Shown: piece after piece, positions 1 through 14,900 of the stretch
Layout: the number at the start of each line of letters is the position of its first letter
Numbering within the stretch: position 1 is the stretch's first letter
Source of the DNA: Candidatus Eiseniibacteriota bacterium
GTDB taxonomy: Bacteria; Eisenbacteria; RBG-16-71-46; CAZAMP01
Length of the DNA stretch: 16,070 nucleotides
NCBI GenBank assembly: GCA_965224245.1
Contig: CBDCYW010000012.1
Location: 1 to 16,070 of the forward strand
Reading direction: 5' to 3'
Program-made: the position numbers and the translations under genes
The notes under the pieces: model-generated
Database searches by the model: none
What the model was told of the DNA's origin: nothing
What the model saw: the letters and a program-made list of their open reading frames with translations, nothing else

Positions 1-70
1 GGTACCTATCCTTCATCAAACCAGGAACGTCGACCACCGAACGGCGGCGCAGGAAAGGAAAGACGAAGCC

Positions 71-310
71 ATGACGAAGAAGCCCAACTACAGCGTCGGG
101 CCCCGACCTGACGGTGGGTGGCAGGTGAAGCGCGACGGCGCCGACCGGGCCAGCTCCACCCACGATCGGAAGGTCGACGCGGTCGAGCGCGGCCGAGACC
201 TGGCCCGCAAGAGCGAGGGAGAGCTCCGTATCAAGGGCAAGGACGGACGCATCCAGGACTCGGACTCGTACGGTCGGGATCCCCACCCGCCGAAGGACAA
301 GAGGCACTGA
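71..310 (+). CDS. DUF2188 family small protein
   Basis: 79 aa with the typical pattern V.P...GGWQVKRDGA.RAS..H..K..A...GR.LA......L.I.G.DGRIQ..DSYG.DP.PP; purine-rich RBS-like AGGAAAGGA upstream. Confidence 0.9.
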   Translation: MTKKPNYSVGPRPDGGWQVKRDGADRASSTHDRKVDAVERGRDLARKSEGELRIKGKDGRIQDSDSYGRDPHPPKDKRH

Positions 311-328
311 ACTAGCGAAGAACGAACT

Positions 329-871
329 ATGCTGCAGGCAATCTACAAGGCACTCTCGGATATCTCACTCCTCCAGTGGGTCATCGTGACCGTGATCTGG
401 ATCGTCTTGGCGGTCGCGGTCGCGGCGTCCTTCATGCGCTGGACCTTCCGACGGCACTGGCGTCTCTACAAGAATCTCAAGCGTCCCGTCATCGTCCTCG
501 AACCGCAACATGCATCGGGGGCGCCCGTACCCGACGGCTCGCTCGCCCCCGTGATCGAGATCATGCGGAAGAGCGGCCTTCTCAACGTCAAGAATCAACC
601 CTCGGATCATCGGCACTTCGACCCGTCTGGGAAGCACTGCGTCGTGGTTCTCGGCTACAGGCCCAGCATGACCGGGCTGGAAGACATTCTCACCCGGATT
701 AAGTCGCACCATGTTCCTCTGATCGTCTACACGTACGGGAGCAACAAAATCACCGGCGAAGACAAGGCCAAGCTCGACGGCTACCCGTTCACGCTCTACG
801 CAAACTTCCCGCTGACGCTCCTCAACCACATTTTCGCAACCGTAGCGAGCTACCCCTATGACCCGAAGTGA
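329..871 (+). CDS. Single-pass membrane protein with alpha/beta (Rossmann-like, NARF-like) cytoplasmic domain; putative CBASS effector/sensor
   Basis: Hydrophobic helix LLQWVIVTVIWIVLAVAVAASF followed by a basic stretch, then beta-strands PVIVL, CVVVLGY and PLIVYTYG alternating with helices; stop overlaps the cyclase start by 14 nt. Confidence 0.7.
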   Translation: MLQAIYKALSDISLLQWVIVTVIWIVLAVAVAASFMRWTFRRHWRLYKNLKRPVIVLEPQHASGAPVPDGSLAPVIEIMRKSGLLNVKNQPSDHRHFDPSGKHCVVVLGYRPSMTGLEDILTRIKSHHVPLIVYTYGSNKITGEDKAKLDGYPFTLYANFPLTLLNHIFATVASYPYDPK

Positions 872-2273
872 CCTCGAGCAGTTAGTCGTCGGCTTCATCC
901 GCGACAACCTGTCGCCGACGGAGGGGGAGCGGTCGGAGATCTCGACGCGCTACTTGCAGCTCCAGGATTTCCTCGCGGGGCGCACCTTCCAGAACGGATC
1001 GTACGCCCGGTTCACGTCGACGACCCCGGTGAATGACCTCGACGTCATCTACGTGCTCCCGCAAGAGGTCGTCAAGTCGATCACCGTCGCCCGGGCGATC
1101 GACACTTCGAAGCTGGACATCCATCGGATCATCGAGTCCCTCGCGGGCGAGCTGAGAGTGCACTACGGCCGGTCGGCGACGATCAAGCTCCAGCCCCACT
1201 CCGCGGGCATCTACTTCGGCCGCGAGGACGAGTTCTCCATCGATGTCGTACCAGCAGTTCCGACCGACGACGGGATGTTCTGGGTGCCCGAAATCGCGCA
1301 CCTCTCCGTTGCGAAGCGCCGAGGACTCTACCGCACACATGCCGCCCATCCGCCGTCTCCGAACTGGATCAAGTCGGATCCCAAGGGCTACATCGCCCAA
1401 GCCAAGGACACCGATGAGCGGTCGGACGGTCGCTTCCGCAAAGCGGCCAAGGCCATGAAGCGGTGGCGATGGGGATGCAAGGCCGGAGACGACTCGTTCC
1501 GCCTCAAGTCCTTCCACCTGGAGCAGGCGGTCACCGGGCTCTTCGGAGCAACCCCAGCGACGTCATGTTGCGATGCCATCGGCAGAACGCTCGAAGGCGT
1601 CCCGGACCTCATCGCCAGACCGCAGATTCCCGACAGAGCCGACCGGACACGATTCATCGATGAGTACGTGTGCACCCTCACCGCGGAGGAGCGGAAGACG
1701 ATCCAAACCGCCCATCGGCTCGCGATGTCCCACTGGGCGTCCGTCTTGGAGGCTGGCACATCAACGGAGGCACGACGCGCCCTCGCCACGTTCTTCTGCA
1801 TGAATCCTGTGTTCCCCGTTCGAGCGGTGAGCGGAGCGAGCGCGTCCCCAGTCCCGCGGGGTCTCGTCGCTACGAACGGTAGAGACCCTGGAGAGCAGTT
1901 CCTCCAGGACAACGGCGTTTCGACCGACCTTCGTCATGGAGTGCGGATCAATGCCCGGGTGACCCAGAACGGATTCCGTCCCTTCAACCTGCGGGGCAGC
2001 ACGAAGCCCCTTCTCAAGCAGCGCCACCTCGAGTTCTTCATCGACTCATGTGATGTTCCGGAGCCCTATGATGTCCGATGGAAGGTGAAGAACACGGGAC
2101 CGGAGGCGGCGGCGAGGGGGGACCTGCGTGGGCAGATCTACGCCGACGCAGGTCGGCACCGGCACACCGAGAACACCAAGTACCGGGGCAACCACTACGT
2201 GGAGTGCTACATCATCAAGGATGGCGTTTGCGTCGCTGCTGACCACATCGATGTTGTGATCGGTCGTTCCTGA
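858..2273 (+). CDS. cGAS/DncV-like nucleotidyltransferase (CD-NTase/SMODS) fused to a C-terminal AGS-C domain
   Basis: Pol-beta NTase motifs GSYARFT..PVNDLDV, SIDVVPA, WIKSDP and LKSFHLE; C-terminus YDVRWKVKNTGPEA...LRGQI...E.T.YRGNHYVECYIIKDG matches the AGS-C pattern. Confidence 0.92.
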   Translation: MTRSDLEQLVVGFIRDNLSPTEGERSEISTRYLQLQDFLAGRTFQNGSYARFTSTTPVNDLDVIYVLPQEVVKSITVARAIDTSKLDIHRIIESLAGELRVHYGRSATIKLQPHSAGIYFGREDEFSIDVVPAVPTDDGMFWVPEIAHLSVAKRRGLYRTHAAHPPSPNWIKSDPKGYIAQAKDTDERSDGRFRKAAKAMKRWRWGCKAGDDSFRLKSFHLEQAVTGLFGATPATSCCDAIGRTLEGVPDLIARPQIPDRADRTRFIDEYVCTLTAEERKTIQTAHRLAMSHWASVLEAGTSTEARRALATFFCMNPVFPVRAVSGASASPVPRGLVATNGRDPGEQFLQDNGVSTDLRHGVRINARVTQNGFRPFNLRGSTKPLLKQRHLEFFIDSCDVPEPYDVRWKVKNTGPEAAARGDLRGQIYADAGRHRHTENTKYRGNHYVECYIIKDGVCVAADHIDVVIGRS

Positions 2274-2427
2274 CCCACTCAGGTGGAGGTCAGGTTCTCA
2301 GAAGCCAGGTCAACCACGCAGCAGCCAGTCACTTAGGTGATTTCTGGACCTGACGCGTCAACTACAGTGCTCGCAACGCCGATACCTGCGATAGAACGGT
2401 GTGGGCGGGTCTCGCGAGGTGGTGTTG

Positions 2428-3351
2428 ATGCTCGACTACTCAGAAGTCGATGGAACGAGATTCGAGCAGCTCGTACGAGAACTTCTTCTTGTTCTTGGGC
2501 TGGCACCAAGATGGTCCGGGGAGGGCCCTGACCAGGGTCGCGATATCATCGCGACCGAGTCTTTCTCGGGCCCGGTTTCCAAGACGAAGCGAGTGTGGCT
2601 GGTTCAGTGCAAGAACACGGCGTCGGCGATTGGACGACCCGATCTAGCGTCGGTGGTCACGGATTGTCAGCAGATCGGTGCTGATGGCTATCTGCTTGTC
2701 TGCTCGAAAAACCCGACGTCGAGTGCCGTGCAGCTCCTCGAGGAGTTGGACAGGAACGGCAGTCCCGTTACTCGGTACTGGGACGGTGTCGAACTCGAGA
2801 AGCGCCTGAACGAGCCACGCGCTTTCGGGATCGCCCAGATGTTCTTTCCTAAGTCGCTGGGCGGAACCCCGTGGCGGGTATACAACGCTGGCTCCCCATC
2901 CATATGGGCCGCCCACTACCGTGGCCACTTCATCTACTTGTGTTGTCGAGATGGCGCAACGTTTCCCTGCCTGAGCTGGGTGGAGCCGCTTGTCGCTCGC
3001 TTCGAGAAACTGACGGCGGGGGAAGATGAGTACCTTCGGCTCCGTGCGGTGTACTTCGACGACAAGCACTGTCAGCTGTATGTGTTCAGCGACTACCTGC
3101 ATCCGGCTAACTCAGTCCCTACTATCTCTCCTTTGCAGTTCAGCGAGGTCGTCGGAGATGGCTATTGCCCGGATACGTGCCTGCAAACGTTGTGGGAAGT
3201 GCGGAGGGTTACGAGCTACCCGTCCGGCGATCACTTTCACGTTGACCATCACGTGTTCTACGAGCCATACATCCGAAACTTTCGGGAAGGCACGTTTCGC
3301 GACATGCCGCTAAGCACCTACGTCTTTCATGGCGGTGAGTGGTCGGTGTGA
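2428..3351 (+). CDS. Mrr-like (PD-(D/E)xK, Mrr_cat) restriction endonuclease domain fused to an unknown C-terminal domain
   Basis: DGTRFEQLVRELL...GPDQGRDIIA...WLVQCKN and later YWDGVELE; ATG at 2428 preceded by GAGGTGG (ORF track starts at GTG 2401). Confidence 0.85.
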   Translation: MLDYSEVDGTRFEQLVRELLLVLGLAPRWSGEGPDQGRDIIATESFSGPVSKTKRVWLVQCKNTASAIGRPDLASVVTDCQQIGADGYLLVCSKNPTSSAVQLLEELDRNGSPVTRYWDGVELEKRLNEPRAFGIAQMFFPKSLGGTPWRVYNAGSPSIWAAHYRGHFIYLCCRDGATFPCLSWVEPLVARFEKLTAGEDEYLRLRAVYFDDKHCQLYVFSDYLHPANSVPTISPLQFSEVVGDGYCPDTCLQTLWEVRRVTSYPSGDHFHVDHHVFYEPYIRNFREGTFRDMPLSTYVFHGGEWSV

Positions 3352-3389
3352 CGGCTCCGGCAACTTCCGTCCTACCATCCGCGTTTGAC

Positions 3390-3567
3390 CTACTCGGCTA
3401 TCCAGGGCTTATGACACGCGTGCCGCGCCTTCCCCCGGGCTTGCTGCCGGCGTTTCATCTGCCGGATGATGCTCTGTGGGCGGTTTTCCAGGATGTAATT
3501 CGGCCATTGGATCAGGAGAGGCCTGTCTGTAAAAAGGTGCGTATTGTGTCTACTACGGTGAGCCACC
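3390..3567 (-). pseudogene. Orphan second copy of the serine recombinase 3' end (about 58 codons, one 1-bp indel)
   Basis: Reads WLTVVDTIRT(F/fs)TDRPLLIQWPNYILENRPQSIIRQMKRR...; the intact LSR tail reads WLAVVDTIRTLFTENPQLIQWPKYIQEQSLDVSIRQLRRR. Confidence 0.85.
3536..3567. repeat. Direct repeat copy 1 (att-like core) GGTGCGTATTGTGTCTACTACGGtGAGCCACC
   Basis: 31/32 identical to 5564-5595; a second shared block GGCCATTGGATCAG lies at 3502-3515 and 5529-5542. Confidence 0.95.
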
Positions 3568-3610
3568 GGGAATCGAATGCCGCCGAGGGCAATGATGGAC
3601 AACACGCATG

Positions 3611-3641
3611 AACACCGCCAGGATTGGCGGCGTTTTTGTTT
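3611..3641 (+). terminator. Putative intrinsic terminator
   Basis: Stem CCGCCA-GGAT-TGGCGG (extendable with AAC/GTT) followed by TTTTTGTTT. Confidence 0.6.
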
Positions 3642-3784
3642 GCGGTGAGTGATGGTCCAGTATCAACAGGTCGGGAGCTGTCCACAGGGCATCCGGGAGG
3701 TTCGAACCCCGAACCTGGACGAAACCCAATGGGTGTGCTTGGCTTAAGGTGTCGACCTTACTTTGAGCTGAAGAAATGTAGTCT

Positions 3785-5365
3785 ATGTCAAAGAAGAGAA
3801 GGAAAAAGCGTCAGAAGGCGCGCCAGGGTGGGGGGTACAGCGCGCTCAGGAGACATCATAAGAAGGGGTCTCGACTTTACTCGCCCGGCGATGAACTCAG
3901 GTTCACCGATGTTCAGTGGATGCGCGACATGGTACCCGAGCACCTGTGGATCGGCGCGCTAGCTATGTTCTACGGACCGAGGAAGGCCGAGTGGCCAAAC
4001 ATCTATGGCGAGATGATGGACGCACTCGACGAGGTTGTCGGGGACCAGAAACTCCCGCCACTTGGAATGGTGTCGGACTTCTCCCTCGTTCCGGCGGACA
4101 CGCGTGAACGGTTCCGAAAGCAACATGAGGCCCTGATTCAAAAGGCCGTGCTTCTTCCGTTTGGGAGAGTGGCCGCGTTCTATCCTGACTGCCCCATGGG
4201 ATGGTTGATCGAAGAGGACTGGCTCGAGGCCGGAGGCCCGCTAGATCCCGATATGGAGCTCGGTCAGCTATCGACGCTTCTTGCGCTCCTGTTCGACGGC
4301 AAGGAGCTGACGACCGGGCACGTGCGAGCCGTTCCGCTAAACCGATTGTTCAAGCACAACAAGCTGTTTATCACGAGGGGCGTCTCGGACGATGTGGTCA
4401 AGCTCCTCCCGAAGTATCCCGCCGAGTGCAATGAAGAAGAGCTCTACAGAGTTCAGCAGTGGGCGCGAACTGCGCTTAACGTGATGTACACGATCGACGG
4501 CCGTTACGTAGATCGTGCCTGGCCGAAGTACTTCTGGAGGCAGAACTACAACCTCGCACCATGTGGCCCGCGACGAGTGCAGCCGTCCGGATCCGAAGGC
4601 GTGGATCGGGATGATGTCAGGTCCGTCATGATCCAGAACGCTAGATGTGTCAAAGGGTACCTTGACAGTCTTGTGAGTGTTCCGCCGGTGGACCTCTACG
4701 ATCCACGACGAGATGAGGTTCTATTGGGTCTGTTTGCACGACTCACACGCTTGGTAGTGACACTGGCGCAGAACGAGTCATTGTGGGCTCGAGACATGGC
4801 TGGCATTCTGCTGCGGTGCATAGCCGACACGGCAATCACATTCGTCTACTTAGCGAAGGACGGAACAGACCAGGAGTTCGAAGACTTCTGTCAGTATAGC
4901 GAGGGCAAAGAGAAGCTGTTGATGCTTCACCTTCAGGACTCGTATCCTGACCGATTGTCTATCGATGGTCGCGATGTACAGGCAATCGGAGACGACTTAG
5001 GTGGCTTCCTCGCGGAGGTCATGCAAATCGAATTGGATAGCTGGACTAAGAAGTCCGCGCGGACCTTGGCTCAAAGAGCTGGCCTTGAGGAGTACTACAG
5101 GTTGGTTTATGACCCCACGAGTGCGGATCTTCACGGTTCGTGGATTAGCGTCCGTGAGTCGAATCTGACGTACTGCGAGACCCCGCTCCATCGGTACCAC
5201 AGGTTGCCTTCGTACTCTGATCCGCCCGTGTACGTGGGCTACCTGGGTGCTGCGATACGACTCTATCGGGAATGTCAACGAGTAGCCGTGGATGTCCTGA
5301 AATTCCCAGCCCCCAAAGAGCGCGTGCTGAGAATGCCTGGCGACGAGAGGGAGCACGAGGCCTAG
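3785..5365 (+). CDS. DUF5677-like (HEPN-related) protein, candidate defence factor
   Basis: 526-aa ORF; C-terminal half has A.ILLRCIADTAITFVYL ... LA.RAGLEEYYRLVYDPTSADLHGSW, typical of DUF5677-type helical domains; basic N-terminus. Confidence 0.75.
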   Translation: MSKKRRKKRQKARQGGGYSALRRHHKKGSRLYSPGDELRFTDVQWMRDMVPEHLWIGALAMFYGPRKAEWPNIYGEMMDALDEVVGDQKLPPLGMVSDFSLVPADTRERFRKQHEALIQKAVLLPFGRVAAFYPDCPMGWLIEEDWLEAGGPLDPDMELGQLSTLLALLFDGKELTTGHVRAVPLNRLFKHNKLFITRGVSDDVVKLLPKYPAECNEEELYRVQQWARTALNVMYTIDGRYVDRAWPKYFWRQNYNLAPCGPRRVQPSGSEGVDRDDVRSVMIQNARCVKGYLDSLVSVPPVDLYDPRRDEVLLGLFARLTRLVVTLAQNESLWARDMAGILLRCIADTAITFVYLAKDGTDQEFEDFCQYSEGKEKLLMLHLQDSYPDRLSIDGRDVQAIGDDLGGFLAEVMQIELDSWTKKSARTLAQRAGLEEYYRLVYDPTSADLHGSWISVRESNLTYCETPLHRYHRLPSYSDPPVYVGYLGAAIRLYRECQRVAVDVLKFPAPKERVLRMPGDEREHEA

Positions 5366-5422: not shown

Positions 5423-7060
5423 CTATCCTGAGGGTGACATCGACCGAGGCCGCTTCTTCCTCGCGGCTCGCTTCCGGCGCCTGAGTTGTCGGATGCTGAC
5501 ATCGAGGCTCTGTTCCTGGATGTACTTGGGCCATTGGATCAGTTGGGGGTTTTCGGTGAAAAGGGTGCGTATTGTGTCTACTACGGCGAGCCACCCCGGA
5601 ACGTGAGGCCCCTTCGCCATGAGCGAGAGGGGCTTTTTGGCTTCCATTCGCAGTGTCTTCTGAGACAGCACCGGGTTCGAACCGACTGCCACGAAGATCT
5701 CACGCTGGATCTGAGGATCCCCATGTTCGAACGCACTTACCGCTGACGTTAGTAGAGAAACACCGCGAGCCGAAGGTTCGAACCATTCGTCGCCCAGGTC
5801 CGATCGGCGGATCCGTTCGCGGGCTCGTGCGGCTGCCGCGACGAGCTCATCGCGCTTGGTGCGATACTCGTCATCGGAGACAAGGTCGCGAAGTCGTAGG
5901 TCAGTCAACCGATCGATCTGCTTTCGGGCGTCAACCTCCGCGCTCTCGATGCTCCGCCGATGGGCGGCGCGTGCGGCCTCACCGCTTGTGCGCTGGCCGA
6001 GTAGCGTCTTCATGACGTAGTCGGCGTCTTTCGGGTGAAGCGCAATCGTCCGAAGAAAGTCCAGCGCCTGCGCGTGGAGAGCCTCGGCTCGGATCGACGG
6101 CTCGCGGCAGACGTCCCGACCACGGCGCTTTGTGCAGTGGTAGTAGGTATAGCGCGTGCCATGGCGGTTCTGCTTGGTCTCTGCCGTGACGGAGAGGCCG
6201 CACGATCCGCACCGAATGAGACCTGTGAAAGGAAACACATGGTCGGGTCGCCGCGGGCGGCGGCGAGGACGGCCAAGCGCCTCCTGGACGGCTTCGAACT
6301 CCTCGTGGGTGACCATGAGTTCGTGAGCGCCGAGAAAGCGCTCCCCGCGCCGTTGGATGACCCCACAGTAGAAGGGATCGGCGAGCATCCGGTAGAACGA
6401 ACTAAGCGCTACGGGGCGGCCACCCTGGCGGCGTCGCTTGGGCGTGCGTAGGGAAAGGTCGGTGTTGGCCCACCGGAGCACCGCTGACGGCCGTTCGCCG
6501 GCAAGCACGCGTTCCCACATCTGGCGCACAAGGTGGAAGCGGTCAGGATCAGGCACGATCGTCTTGGTGGCTAGGTCGTTCAGATAGCCCAAAGGCGCCG
6601 GGCCGGGTAGCCAACCCTGTTCGAGCTTGGCCCGGTTGCCCCGCCGCACATTGTCCGAGAGATCGTCGACGTACTTCTTGGCCATGCCGAACTCGAGCTG
6701 CATCCAGAGCTTGTCGTCGGCCGCGTTGCGGTAGGTTCGGCCCGGCGTGGCGATCTCCTCGAGCTGCCCTTGGTCCAAAGCCCAGATGATGGCGCCCCCG
6801 TCGATGGGGTTTCGCGCCAATCGGTCGAGTTTCCAGCACAGCACGCCAGTCGCCTCGTGACGAGTAAGCGCTGCCATGAGCTGCTCGAAGACGGGCCGTC
6901 CGGGGCTCTTCGCCGAGCGAGCTTCCTGAAACACGCCGGCGACATCGATGTCGCGGGAGCGGGCAACCGTCTGGAGTTCGGAGATCTGCGAGTCGATGGA
7001 CAGCACCTGTCGATCTTCGGACTCGGATGACTTGCGAGCGTAGAGTAGGTGGCGAGGCAT
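5423..7060 (-). CDS. Large serine recombinase (resolvase catalytic domain, recombinase domain, zinc ribbon, coiled coil)
   Basis: YARKSSESEDRQVLSIDSQ (catalytic Ser), SAK.PGRP.F, WKLDRLARN, GPAPLGY, FTGLIRCGSCG...YYHC...C zinc ribbon. Confidence 0.97.
   Translation of the reverse strand: MPRHLLYARKSSESEDRQVLSIDSQISELQTVARSRDIDVAGVFQEARSAKSPGRPVFEQLMAALTRHEATGVLCWKLDRLARNPIDGGAIIWALDQGQLEEIATPGRTYRNAADDKLWMQLEFGMAKKYVDDLSDNVRRGNRAKLEQGWLPGPAPLGYLNDLATKTIVPDPDRFHLVRQMWERVLAGERPSAVLRWANTDLSLRTPKRRRQGGRPVALSSFYRMLADPFYCGVIQRRGERFLGAHELMVTHEEFEAVQEALGRPRRRPRRPDHVFPFTGLIRCGSCGLSVTAETKQNRHGTRYTYYHCTKRRGRDVCREPSIRAEALHAQALDFLRTIALHPKDADYVMKTLLGQRTSGEAARAAHRRSIESAEVDARKQIDRLTDLRLRDLVSDDEYRTKRDELVAAAARARERIRRSDLGDEWFEPSARGVSLLTSAVSAFEHGDPQIQREIFVAVGSNPVLSQKTLRMEAKKPLSLMAKGPHVPGWLAVVDTIRTLFTENPQLIQWPKYIQEQSLDVSIRQLRRRKRAARKKRPRSMSPSG
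5564..5595. repeat. Direct repeat copy 2 (att-like core), inside the LSR coding sequence
   Basis: GGTGCGTATTGTGTCTACTACGGcGAGCCACC encodes WLAVVDTIRT on the - strand; 2028 bp from copy 1. Confidence 0.95.
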
Positions 7061-11265: not shown

Positions 11266-11851
11266 ATGGCAAAGCAGTATCAGCTCAAAGACAGCGAGTT
11301 CTATTTGAAACCGGCGGCCCTTGAGAAGGTCATCTATGCGGCGGACTCGTTTCGTGACCGCTGCATCCTCAAGACTCTGGCTCAGACCGGTATCCGCCGT
11401 TCCGAGCTTGCGAGTCTCGACATTCGTGACCTTGACCTCGAACGTCGCCGAGTGCGCGTCTGCGAAGGTAAGGGCGCCAAGGAGCGACTTGTCCCGATTA
11501 CCGGTGAATTAGGCTCGGATCTCTCTCACTTGATCGGGAGGTCGAGCCGCGGGCCCCCTGTTCCTCTCCCTTCGAGGTGGTGCGATCTCACCGCGTTCGG
11601 TCAATCGAATCGTCACCACTGCGGGCGAGCGCGCAGGCGTGGAGAATCCCAACCCAAAGTACGAAGGCCGACTTACTTGCCACCTCTTCCGGCATACCTT
11701 TGCCCGAAACTGGAAAGCAAAGGGTGGATCGATCGAGAGTCTCTCGAAGATTCTCGGTCACTCGTCGACGGCGACGACGGTTGACCTATACGGAACGGAA
11801 AGTATCGACGACGTCCAGGCCAATTACGACGCCATCATGCAAGAGCAATAG
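11266..11851 (+). CDS. Short tyrosine recombinase (catalytic domain only; one frameshift near 11555)
   Basis: RDRCILKTLAQTGIRRSEL, GKGAKER, HLFRHTFA and LGHSS...TVDLY give the complete R-K-H-R-H-Y set across two frames. Confidence 0.9.
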
Positions 11852-11926: not shown

Positions 11927-14900
11927 ATGAACGTTTTCGATACCCACAGGCAGGTTGTCGATGACTACTCGCGGTACATTCGCAGCTTCATCAACATAGC
12001 TGACCCAGAGATCGCGCGGGAGGTCGAACAGTCGCTCTCCGAAGGGCGTCTCTGGCCGCAGCCGCTCCTACAGTTCAATCCTGCCTATGAACAGGCCGGT
12101 ACGGTCGAAGAGATCGTCGCGTCAGGACAGCTGCATGAGCACATCCGTCACATCTTCAAGGGCTACACCCTTTACCGGCACCAGCTGGAGGCCATCCAGC
12201 TCGGAATGACGGGTGAGGATTTCGTCGTCACCTCGGGTACGGGATCCGGGAAGTCCCTCACCTACATCGGTTCGATCTTCCATCATCTCCTTCAGAACCC
12301 GAATTCGCCGGGAGTGGCCGCGATCGTCGTCTATCCGATGAATGCGCTCATCAACTCCCAAACGAACGAGTTTCGTGGCTACCAGCGAAACTTCGAGGGC
12401 GTCAGTGGTCGGGAGTTCCCGATGAGCTTCGCCCAGTACACGGGGCAGGAGGGCGAGGAAAGGCGTCAGAAGATGCGGGAGAATCCTCCGCAGATTCTCC
12501 TCACGAACTACATGATGCTTGAGCTCCTGCTCACGCGCTTTCAGGAGCGACGCATCCGCGACGCGAGTCTACAACAATCTGCAATTCCTCGTCTTCGACG
12601 AGCTGCACACCTACCGAGGCAGACAGGGCGCGGACGTCGCGATGCTGATTCGTCGCGTCCAAGCCCAATGCGAGCACAAGCTGACGTGTATCGGAACCTC
12701 GGCGACCATGGTGTCGGTCGGGAGCCTGGCATCGCAGCGAGAGGAAGTGGCCGCCGTCGCGACCACGATGTTTGGCCGACGGTTCAAGCCGGAGCAGATC
12801 ATCAATGAGACTCTCGCTCGGTCGCTTGGCTCGTCGGGAGCTTTGCCGAGCAAGACGGCGCTGTCCGACGCGATCAGTCGGGGCGTCGACGTCAGCGCGG
12901 GCGAAGTTGATCTCAAGTCACATCCAGTCGCGATCTGGCTGGAGAATCGCGTGGCGCTCGAGGAGCGCGAGGGGCAGATCGTTCGGCGCACGCCGCAGCG
13001 GATTGGAGAGGTGATCTCGATGCTGGCCGAGGATTCCGGCGCCTCGGAGCAAGACTGTCGTCGCAATCTGACGGACCTGCTCCTCTGGGTCAGCAAGGTC
13101 AATCAGAAGATCCAGGAGAGGGGATCGCGTTACACAATCCTTCCGTTCAAGCTCCACCAGTTCATTGCGCAGACGGGATCGGTGTACACGACGCTCGATC
13201 AGGGCGACGAGCGCTTCATCACCCTGGAGCCAGGCATCTACAAGGAAGACGACGAAGACAAGCGGCCGATCTTCCCCAATGTGTTCAGCCGTGCCACAGG
13301 ACACCCATTCATTTGTGTGTCGCGGATCGGAGACCGTCTCGAGCCCAGGGAGTTCCGGGACGGGCTCGGATGAGGCGGGCGAGGCGACGGATGGCTACCT
13401 GATCCTTGGAGAGGAAGTCTGGGATCCGGTCGAGGATCTCGACTACCTGCCGGAGGCCTGGATTAGGACGCGAAAGCACGATCGGGTGCCCGATTCCAAG
13501 AAGGCCGACCGCTTCCCCCAGAGGCTCCACTTCGACGAGTTCGGGCGCTGCTCGGAAACGGAGCCGATGAAGTACTGGGGCTGGTTCATGAAGGCCCCGC
13601 TCCTGTTCGACCGACGGGTGGAGTCTTCTTCGAGACCAGGACGAACGAGGGTACAAAGCTCACAAAGCTAGGAAGTGAAGGCCGCAGCACGTCCACGACG
13701 ATCGCGGCGTTCACCATCCTGAACCAGCTGCATGATGCGGGCTTCCACCCGCGCGATCAGAAACTCTTGAGCTTCACGGACAACCGACAGGACGCAGCGC
13801 TTCAAGCCGTCACTTCAACGACTTCGTCCAGGTCATTCAGCTTCGAGCAGGCATTCGGAAGGCGCTGGGGGCCAGCCCTGACAACACGCTGGAGTTTGCT
13901 GGAATCGGTAAGGCCATCTTCGATGCACTAGAGCTTCCGTTCTCTGACTTCGCAAACCGTGAGGACACCGATCTGGCGACGGTGAAGCGCAGGTATGAAG
14001 AGACGTTCCAGAAGTACCTCCTGTATCGCGCTCTGGCTGACTTGCGCCGCAGTTGGCGCATTGTACTTCCGAATCTGGAACAGTGCGGGCTTCTCCAGAT
14101 CGACTACCTCGATCTGAGGGAGATTGCGGCAGAAGGCGGCTTCTGGGCCGATGTGCCCATCCTGGGCAACATGACCCCGGCGAATCGACAGGAACTCCTG
14201 TCGACGATTCTTGACTTCTTCCGGCTGGAGTTCGCGCTTCACAGCGAGAACTTTCTGACGCCGACAAGGCTCAAGGAAAACGAGAAGCACTTCAGGGAGC
14301 AGTTGAGGCCCCCTTGGACGTTGGACCGAAACGAGGGCCTGAATGAGCCCTACGTCATCCGTCTCGATCCACTCCACCGGACGGCGAAGCTCTACTCGAA
14401 AATGCATGGGCCCGGTCAGTTCTCTCGGGAAGTACATCAAGCACATAGCCAAGCGTGAAGGCCTGGATCCGGAAGTCCTGAAAGAAAATCGCTATCGGGA
14501 GTTTATCCTCCAGCTGATGAGTAAGCTCACGGAGGCGGACTACCTGCAGGAGCAGACTGCTCGGAGCGCTCAGAACGACGAGTTCCCGTCTACCGGCTCC
14601 GCATCGAGAAGTTGGTCTGGAAGCTGGGGGGACGGTCAAACCGTCAAACCGGATGTGATCAAACGACGCTCGTACATGGATCAGACGCCGAAGCCGAACG
14701 AGTTCTTCCGCGATCTCTACAGCCGGGATTTTGCGCGAGGCAAGCGCCTGCGCGCAGAGGATCACACCGGCCAATTGGGTGTCGATGATCGTCTGGACCG
14801 GGAAGATCGTTTCCGGGCCGAGTGGTACGTGGAGGGAAGCAACAGCGAGCTGGATGAGAAAAAGATCCACAGCGAGTCGATCAGTGCCCTGTCTGCTCAC

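Follow-up and report, generated by a model that had tools for sequence, protein, structure and literature searches.

Effectors that join a nucleotide sensor to a transmembrane (TM) region have been described both from CBASS (cyclic oligonucleotide-based antiphage signalling systems) and from type III CRISPR systems. Cap15 (CBASS class 2TM) and Cam1 and Csx23 (type III CRISPR) are of this kind, and the published accounts drawn on here attribute to them a disruption or depolarisation of the membrane once the ligand is bound. Cam2, known from 26 type III loci, is described as combining a C-terminal REC-like domain with an N-terminal TM stretch whose length varies, a kinase being absent (Hoikkala, Graham & White 2024, PMC11229360), and its authors predict that it senses cA3 (cyclic triadenylate) and disrupts the membrane. 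The literature gives cyclic oligoadenylates and SAM-AMP as the products of Cas10, and the Cam2 article names just a few modules (NucC, TIR-SAVED and SAVED-CHAT) as common to CBASS and type III CRISPR (PMC11229360). Within CBASS, the classification of Millman 2020 has '1TM' among its effector classes, according to Lau et al. (10.1101/2022.04.27.489752) and DefenseFinder (PMC9090908). Here we describe a gene pair, encoding a membrane protein of 180 amino acids (aa) and a CD-NTase (cGAS/DncV-like nucleotidyltransferase) cyclase, that lies at positions 329 to 2273 of a 16,070-bp stretch of Candidatus Eiseniibacteriota DNA. This stretch, referred to as the window, is an entire contig (contig 13, CBDCYW010000012.1) of a 6.9 Mb genome (GCA_965224245.1) assembled in 27 contigs with a completeness of 97.4%.

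We interpret the pair, with a probability of roughly 70%, as a two-gene operon of type I CBASS in which the TM protein senses the product of the cyclase through a pseudo-receiver domain and damages the membrane. The operon has the following parts.

329–871, plus strand: effector, a 180-aa single-pass membrane protein of the C3a59 / '1TM' family (ATG 329, TGA 869–871)
368–436, plus strand: single TM helix of the effector, approximately residues 14–36 (Kyte-Doolittle scan)
476–868, plus strand: soluble (beta-alpha)5 receiver-like domain of the effector, residues 50–180 (AlphaFold2, AF2), the presumed nucleotide sensor
858–871, plus strand: 14-nucleotide (nt) overlap of the two genes, the cyclase ATG at 858 preceding the effector TGA at 869–871
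858–2273, plus strand: cyclase, 471 aa from ATG 858, a CD-NTase (SMODS) fused to AGS-C
858–1793, plus strand: CD-NTase catalytic core, residues 1–312 (SMODS match, PADLOC cyclase match, AF2)
1893–2261, plus strand: AGS-C domain, residues 346–468 (Pfam AGS_C, PF18134, E 8.3e-38)

The pair shares with type I CBASS of the '1TM' class a two-gene arrangement of cyclase and effector, one predicted TM segment and PADLOC models for both proteins. It differs in that the '1TM' model matches the effector weakly and in part, the best effector model being the CRISPR-derived C3a59. The preliminary description of this DNA had called the pair CBASS-like, which the SMODS and AGS_C domains and the PADLOC cyclase and effector matches bear out. 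It had also called the pair atypical, a label that we drop, since '1TM' is a standing CBASS class with PADLOC models of its own and AGS-C fusions are reported from around 40% of type I CBASS operons (Richmond-Buccola et al., 10.1101/2023.05.21.541620). The effector family is already catalogued, both in PADLOC and among type III CRISPR clusters, and the operon is otherwise a standard type I CBASS. The family name suggested earlier, NARF (nucleotidyltransferase-associated Rossmannoid fold), did not appear in the literature searched and stands as an unverified name.

The cyclase is well defined. The earlier claim of overlapping genes, intact nucleotidyltransferase motifs and a C-terminal AGS-C domain stands in full, and the 14-nt overlap makes translational coupling of the two genes likely. 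Pfam SMODS matches residues 14–146 (E 3.3e-10) and the best PADLOC CBASS cyclase model, PDLC00785, matches with E 3.4e-80. Residues G47-S48, D60-L61-D62 (nt 1035–1043) and D129 are invariant across 40 aligned homologues (alignment A3), from which we conclude that the active site is intact. The AF2 model of the protein has a predicted local distance difference test (pLDDT) score of 89.7 and is made up of the CD-NTase core, a linker and a C-terminal domain that is all-beta from residue 362 to 468; residues 318–335 of the linker between core and AGS-C have a pLDDT below 50 and are modelled as disordered. Foldseek places the protein closest to CdnC (6p8v_G, E 1.6e-13) and to Pseudomonas aeruginosa CdnD (6p8u_A, 5.1e-13), while a profile search of solved cyclases ranks 6p82 (4e-17) and the CdnC entry 6p80 (4.9e-13) highest. 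The likeness to CdnC and CdnD is one to the nearest solved structures and is distinct from a clade placement in the Whiteley/Millman scheme. Titles of Protein Data Bank (PDB) entries name Enterobacter cloacae CdnD as a cyclic trinucleotide synthase, and we take the product of CdnC and of P. aeruginosa CdnD to be cAAA.

The effector was correctly described earlier as a single-TM protein. A Kyte-Doolittle scan finds one hydrophobic segment, with its best 19-residue window at residues 18–36 (score 2.74), and the AF2 model (alignment A1 of 32 sequences, mean pLDDT 85.6) consists of one long helix over residues 2–50 followed by the (beta-alpha)5 domain. The TM helix is followed by a basic juxtamembrane stretch, RWTFRRHWRLYKNLKR, with seven Arg/Lys at residues 37–52, and by the positive-inside rule the C-terminal domain would be expected to face the cytoplasm. 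Searches of gene 329–871 with profile models give a match of E 8.9e-18 to PADLOC PDLC01057 ('C3a59'), pairing residues 1–175 with profile positions 1–163 of 167, and a partial match over residues 78–178 to PADLOC PDLC00664, the CBASS 'Effector, 1TM' model (E 1.1e-5). The effector matches no family in Pfam or NCBIfam, and a profile built from it retrieves nothing credible among PDB sequences (best E 0.063).

The soluble domain is a three-layer alpha/beta structure of the receiver type, which substantiates and narrows the earlier term Rossmann-like. In a VIA-align structural search the best match is the FixJ receiver 1d5w_A (Z 11.0, root-mean-square deviation 2.9 Å over 115 residues). Receiver domains make up most of the 50 VIA-align rows, many with Z of about 10, and the rest are other flavodoxin-like domains such as cobalamin-binding ones; Foldseek against the PDB returns weak receiver matches, the best being 1dbw_A (E 1.1e-3). 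The likeness to response-regulator receivers (REC/CheY-like) is confined to the (beta-alpha)5 fold, whereas the phospho-acceptor Asp, the acidic pocket and the Lys of those proteins are all absent from the effector. In alignment A1 the place of the phospho-acceptor Asp, at the end of beta3, is taken by an invariant G109-Y110, and beta5 is followed by an invariant A158-N159-F160 with no receiver Lys. After beta1 a conserved acidic pair is missing, and the invariant positions of that alignment include no Asp, Glu, Lys or Ser. In the broader alignment A2 of 76 sequences the near-invariant positions are M1, N49, P130, Y152 and L164 only. We regard the domain, which lacks these elements of receiver chemistry, as a pseudo-receiver, that is, as a sensor or structural domain and not as an enzyme or phospho-receiver. 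Prediction of a two-copy effector complex from alignment A1 (score 0.01, mark 0.42) was uninformative either way.

The assignment of the TM protein as effector draws chiefly on gene context. We compared 20 loci with a member of the family: the window, two species genomes, nine metagenomes, six further Patescibacteria genomes and two plasmids. The metagenomes were scanned with alignment A1, A2 being too divergent, and the metagenome loci are thus close relatives only. Three loci (L005, L006 and L011) break off at a contig end no more than about 170 nt from the TM gene, which left 17 loci to be judged. A SMODS cyclase gene lies directly 3' of the TM gene in 15 of these 17, mostly overlapping it (overlapping or abutting arrangements are seen at L002, L003, L007, L009, L022, L024, L026 and L027), and it is for this reason that the TM protein is the likely effector or receptor, as had been proposed. 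The expectation that the TM protein co-occurs with CD-NTases in other genomes holds on the same count. In the remaining two, both on plasmids of Gloeothece verrucosa PCC 7822, the TM gene lies in a type III-B CRISPR locus. Nothing but the TM gene and the cyclase is constant across the 15 CBASS loci; the outer neighbours vary and include restriction-modification genes and integrases. The cyclase carries a fused AGS_C domain at five loci (the window, L002, L003, L022 and L024), is followed by an E2-only gene at four (L007, L008, L013 and L027; PADLOC E2 down to 1.7e-32) and by a ThiF-type Cap2 and a JAB gene at two (L010 and L012), and stands by itself or is cut by the contig end at four (L009, L023, L025 and L026). 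The cyclase of L022 is a full-length homologue of the window cyclase (30% identity, E 1e-55), likewise with SMODS and AGS-C.

Some of these loci show individual features. At L013 the SMODS cyclase is split into two overlapping open reading frames (ORFs) of 163 and 204 aa (165–1209), by a frameshift or a sequencing error. Two Patescibacteria loci (L023, 153–920, and L025, 3258–4025) pair the TM protein with a short 255-aa SMODS protein lacking AGS-C and any downstream accessory gene. A LexA-like repressor gene adjoins the TM-cyclase pair in six of the 15 CBASS loci, with a Peptidase_S24 and a LexA DNA-binding domain (S24 only at L027), at the following positions.

L002, 5107–5727: LexA-like repressor
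L007, 5382–5999: LexA-like repressor
L022, 6612–7232: LexA-like repressor
L023, 1487–2110: LexA-like repressor
L024, 5350–6006: LexA-like repressor
L027, 4914–5540: LexA-like repressor, S24 only

At L003 a helix-turn-helix (HTH) and M78 peptidase pair takes the place of the LexA-like repressor. The LexA-like neighbours suggest DNA-damage-linked control of this CBASS lineage; the CapH/CapP preprint that was searched makes no mention of LexA.

The effector family also reaches into type III CRISPR. Shah et al. 2018 list C3a59 as cluster 59 among the type III CRISPR accessory genes, with seven members from subtypes III-A, III-B and III-D, the representative Nos7107_2826 and the description 'trans-membrane (TM)' (PMC6546367). 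The window effector resembles this cluster in its near-complete profile match, and relatives of it are truly found in type III-B loci. It differs in that no cas genes occur among the window ORFs scanned, its partner being a CD-NTase, and its membership of C3a59 is assigned by sequence only. The effector of L022, a CBASS locus of Patescibacteria, retrieves two Gloeothece plasmid proteins at 62% and 50% identity, both annotated as 'hypothetical' and both situated between a cas10-cmr3-cmr4-cmr6 operon and cas1-cas2 (type III-B).

NC_014534.1, 241083–241592 (L028): Gloeothece homologue of the effector
NC_014533.1, 842242–842775 (L029): Gloeothece homologue of the effector

A TIR-domain gene adjoins cas10 at L028. 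The two Gloeothece proteins are 25–28% identical to the window effector, which aligns over its whole length with one of them (28% over 172 columns, E 4e-10, hhalign 95.5%). Longer relatives from the family match PADLOC C3a55 and Mem_02, and a 172-aa relative with one TM (P0090) matches Mem_04 weakly (E 2.2e-4); PADLOC describes Mem_04 as a membrane protein 'in type III operon' and annotates it with 'could be a CARF domain diverged beyond r...'. A tree of 15 effector sequences, a small sample rooted at the midpoint, has two well-supported clades, one of which joins the two CRISPR-linked proteins to five CBASS-linked proteins of Patescibacteria.

The effector is also like Cam2 in its TM and REC-like architecture, in the existence of forms with one and with two TM segments, and in that no kinase occurs among the window ORFs scanned. 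The likeness is drawn from the description of Cam2, not from its sequence, and that description as given in PMC11229360 differs in making no mention of CBASS partners. Cap15, Cam1 and Csx23 share with the effector an N-terminal TM region and a small cytoplasmic sensing domain, but the sensor folds differ, being a beta-barrel in Cap15, CARF in Cam1 and a novel tetrameric domain in Csx23, and no sequence or fold match leads from the effector to any of them.

These comparisons allow a mechanism to be outlined. Phage infection would lead the CD-NTase to make a cyclic oligonucleotide, its phage sensing probably being tuned by the AGS-C domain, an Ig-like domain for which such a modulating role has been suggested (10.1101/2023.05.21.541620). 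The cyclic oligonucleotide would be bound by the cytoplasmic pseudo-receiver, and the ligand-bound effector would change its oligomeric state or conformation such that the TM helices compromise the inner membrane, with abortive infection or growth arrest as the presumed outcome. The Cas10 profiles TIGR02577 and TIGR02578 have no matches in the 97.4% complete genome, and the adjacent cyclase is therefore the obvious source of the signal. Our best guess for that signal is a cyclic trinucleotide such as cA3, because close relatives of the effector work with Cas10 and the nearest solved cyclases are CdnC and CdnD. More tentatively, and at somewhat less than even odds, the pseudo-receiver may constitute a distinct class of cyclic-oligonucleotide receptor, mounted on a portable one-helix effector that has been exchanged between CD-NTase generators (CBASS I and II) and Cas10.

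Several points weigh against this interpretation or against parts of it. In the literature searched there is no experiment on any member of the effector family. The matches that define the domain are to a very common fold at 9–18% identity, so that they name a shape and give no function, and no match to CARF, SAVED, STING or the Cap15 barrel was obtained from Pfam, PADLOC, the PDB profile search or the listed Foldseek and VIA-align rows, though a distant relation to CARF or SAVED may still exist. The clade of the effector tree that contains the window protein is CBASS-linked in all eight of its rows and has no CRISPR-linked member, and to transfer a cyclic oligoadenylate ligand to it is a long reach. 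As regards the trinucleotide, the Foldseek E-values for CdnG, DncV and CdnB are only approximately 1000-fold worse than those for CdnC and CdnD, and the placement near CdnC and CdnD is a poor fit to the presence of AGS-C, since among type I cyclases this domain is stated to be missing from clades A, C, D and E (10.1101/2023.05.21.541620). Finally, the end of the contig leaves just 328 nt 5' of the TM-cyclase pair.

This short left flank is what gives room to the idea that the true effector lies beyond the contig end and that the TM protein is an accessory. At L002 there is indeed a TIR_2-domain gene two genes upstream of the pair, but it is the only such gene in the 15 CBASS loci, and the genes immediately upstream elsewhere are LexA-like (six loci), an HTH and M78 pair (one locus), or restriction-modification and unrelated genes. 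Since the left neighbours differ among the related loci and none is a conserved effector, a canonical effector to the left of the window is unlikely for this genome too, and we give the accessory role very little credence. The TM protein might instead be an anchor or regulator that holds the cyclase inactive or localises it, with toxicity residing elsewhere or being absent. A single TM helix, with no catalytic or pore-forming feature readable from the sequence, would suit such a role, and membrane tethering has been proposed for uncharacterised membrane proteins of type III systems (Shmakov et al., 10.1101/270033). This is improbable: the 15 CBASS loci have no further constant gene and for that reason offer no alternative effector, PADLOC files relatives of the protein as CBASS effectors, and the family is kept when Cas10 systems replace the cyclase, as expected of a portable output module.

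The receiver-like domain could alternatively be a tethered flavodoxin-like enzyme, for instance a TIR- or LOG/SLOG-like hydrolase of NAD+ or nucleotides that kills through metabolism. The flavodoxin-like fold class is common to TIR and related nucleotide-processing domains, and in the 32 sequences of the close subfamily His103 and Cys104 reach a conservation of at least 90%. These two residues are, however, not near-invariant in the 76-sequence alignment, no acidic residue is invariant in the 32 sequences, the top fold matches are receivers and not TIR, and Pfam, NCBIfam and PADLOC, which cover the families on their own lists, assign neither TIR, SLOG nor another enzyme family; we consider an enzyme quite unlikely. 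The pair could, in the last alternative, be a housekeeping second-messenger system with no role in phage defence, receiver-like domains being typical of ordinary signal transduction and the defence role being a predicted one. We think this scarcely credible given that the family is distributed patchily (see below), that the pair lies beside Mrr-like, DitA-like and serine recombinase genes, and that the related loci are found among restriction-modification genes, integrases and the CBASS accessories Cap2/Cap3 or E2. The effector that senses the cyclase product and acts on the membrane is the reading that we prefer.

The remainder of the contig carries the following features.

71–310, plus strand: DUF2188 protein, 79 aa (Pfam DUF2188, 2.3e-23; PADLOC candidate defence singleton PDC-S16, 1.2e-29)
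2401–3351: Mrr_cat-type restriction endonuclease-like gene (PADLOC PDC-M58A, 3.4e-12)
3785–5365: DUF5677 / DitA-like gene (PADLOC DitA, 8.3e-25)
5423–7060, minus strand: large serine recombinase (Resolvase, Recombinase and zinc ribbon)
11266–11784: short tyrosine-integrase fragment
11927–12808 and 12519–13373: DEAD-box helicase in two overlapping frames, a frameshift being likely

Genes for an HTH, a RuvC-like and a DUF932 protein are also present. With the Mrr-like and DitA-like genes 3' of the CBASS pair the contig holds a small defence island, and as a whole it looks like a partly decayed mobile element loaded with defence genes. The Mrr-like nuclease was considered as the effector and rejected, as it is separated from the pair by a 127-nt gap and no Mrr_cat match was found among the neighbours scanned in related loci. 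The DUF2188 gene stops 18 nt before the effector gene and may be co-transcribed with it; scanning of the neighbours at the related loci reported no DUF2188, and the gene is at most a candidate member of the CBASS. The preliminary description recognised no patatin, SAVED, NucC, TIR or Cap2/Cap3 gene next to the cyclase in the window, and the scan of the window ORFs likewise revealed none of these, no HORMA or TRIP13 gene, no cas gene and no histidine kinase, the left flank being the 328 nt noted above. A promoter and terminator scan of positions 1–3800 gave nothing that exceeded shuffled sequences, and comparison of the contig ends for terminal repeats revealed no overlap and no common 14-mers. 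Contig 26 of this genome (G000:C26; L032, 4065–5550, minus strand) carries another type I CBASS, unrelated to the first and made up of a 294-aa cyclase (PADLOC PDLC00786, 1.8e-142) and a 2TM effector (PDLC00696, 9.1e-76).

The effector family is small, with 36 non-self homologues at E<=1e-3 in a 90%-clustered collection and 168 clusters at 50% identity, 77 of them at <=1e-10. Most members have 160–190 aa and one TM segment, and a minority of 250–330 aa has a second TM segment in front of the shared C-terminal domain. Thirteen of the 36 non-self TM homologues have the same 'longest contig' figure as a listed cyclase homologue, suggesting a shared contig, and one TM/cyclase pair has consecutive locus tags (TRIP_C20074/20073). 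The family occurs in one of 206 genomes of the window's phylum, that genome being the window's own, and in seven of 401 sampled Patescibacteria genomes, a patchy distribution that fits horizontal spread. A tblastn search of plasmids with the window effector (P0001) and a 2-TM relative (P0138) gave no match, and PADLOC Mem_02 had no matches in the 401 Patescibacteria genomes, where the control was likewise silent.

For annotation, 'CBASS effector' should replace 'hypothetical protein' for this gene. The TM pseudo-receiver is another module common to CBASS, in its AGS-C, E2-only and Cap2/Cap3 forms, and to the Cmr systems of cyanobacterial plasmids. If the protein is indeed a portable receptor, then the signal made by this AGS-C cyclase lineage would resemble that of Cas10, for instance cA3, and nucleotide sensing would be within the reach of receiver domains. 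With a soluble domain of approximately 130 residues and an operon of 1.9 kb, the pair would be an easy system in which to test the reading of cyclic nucleotides by a receiver fold.

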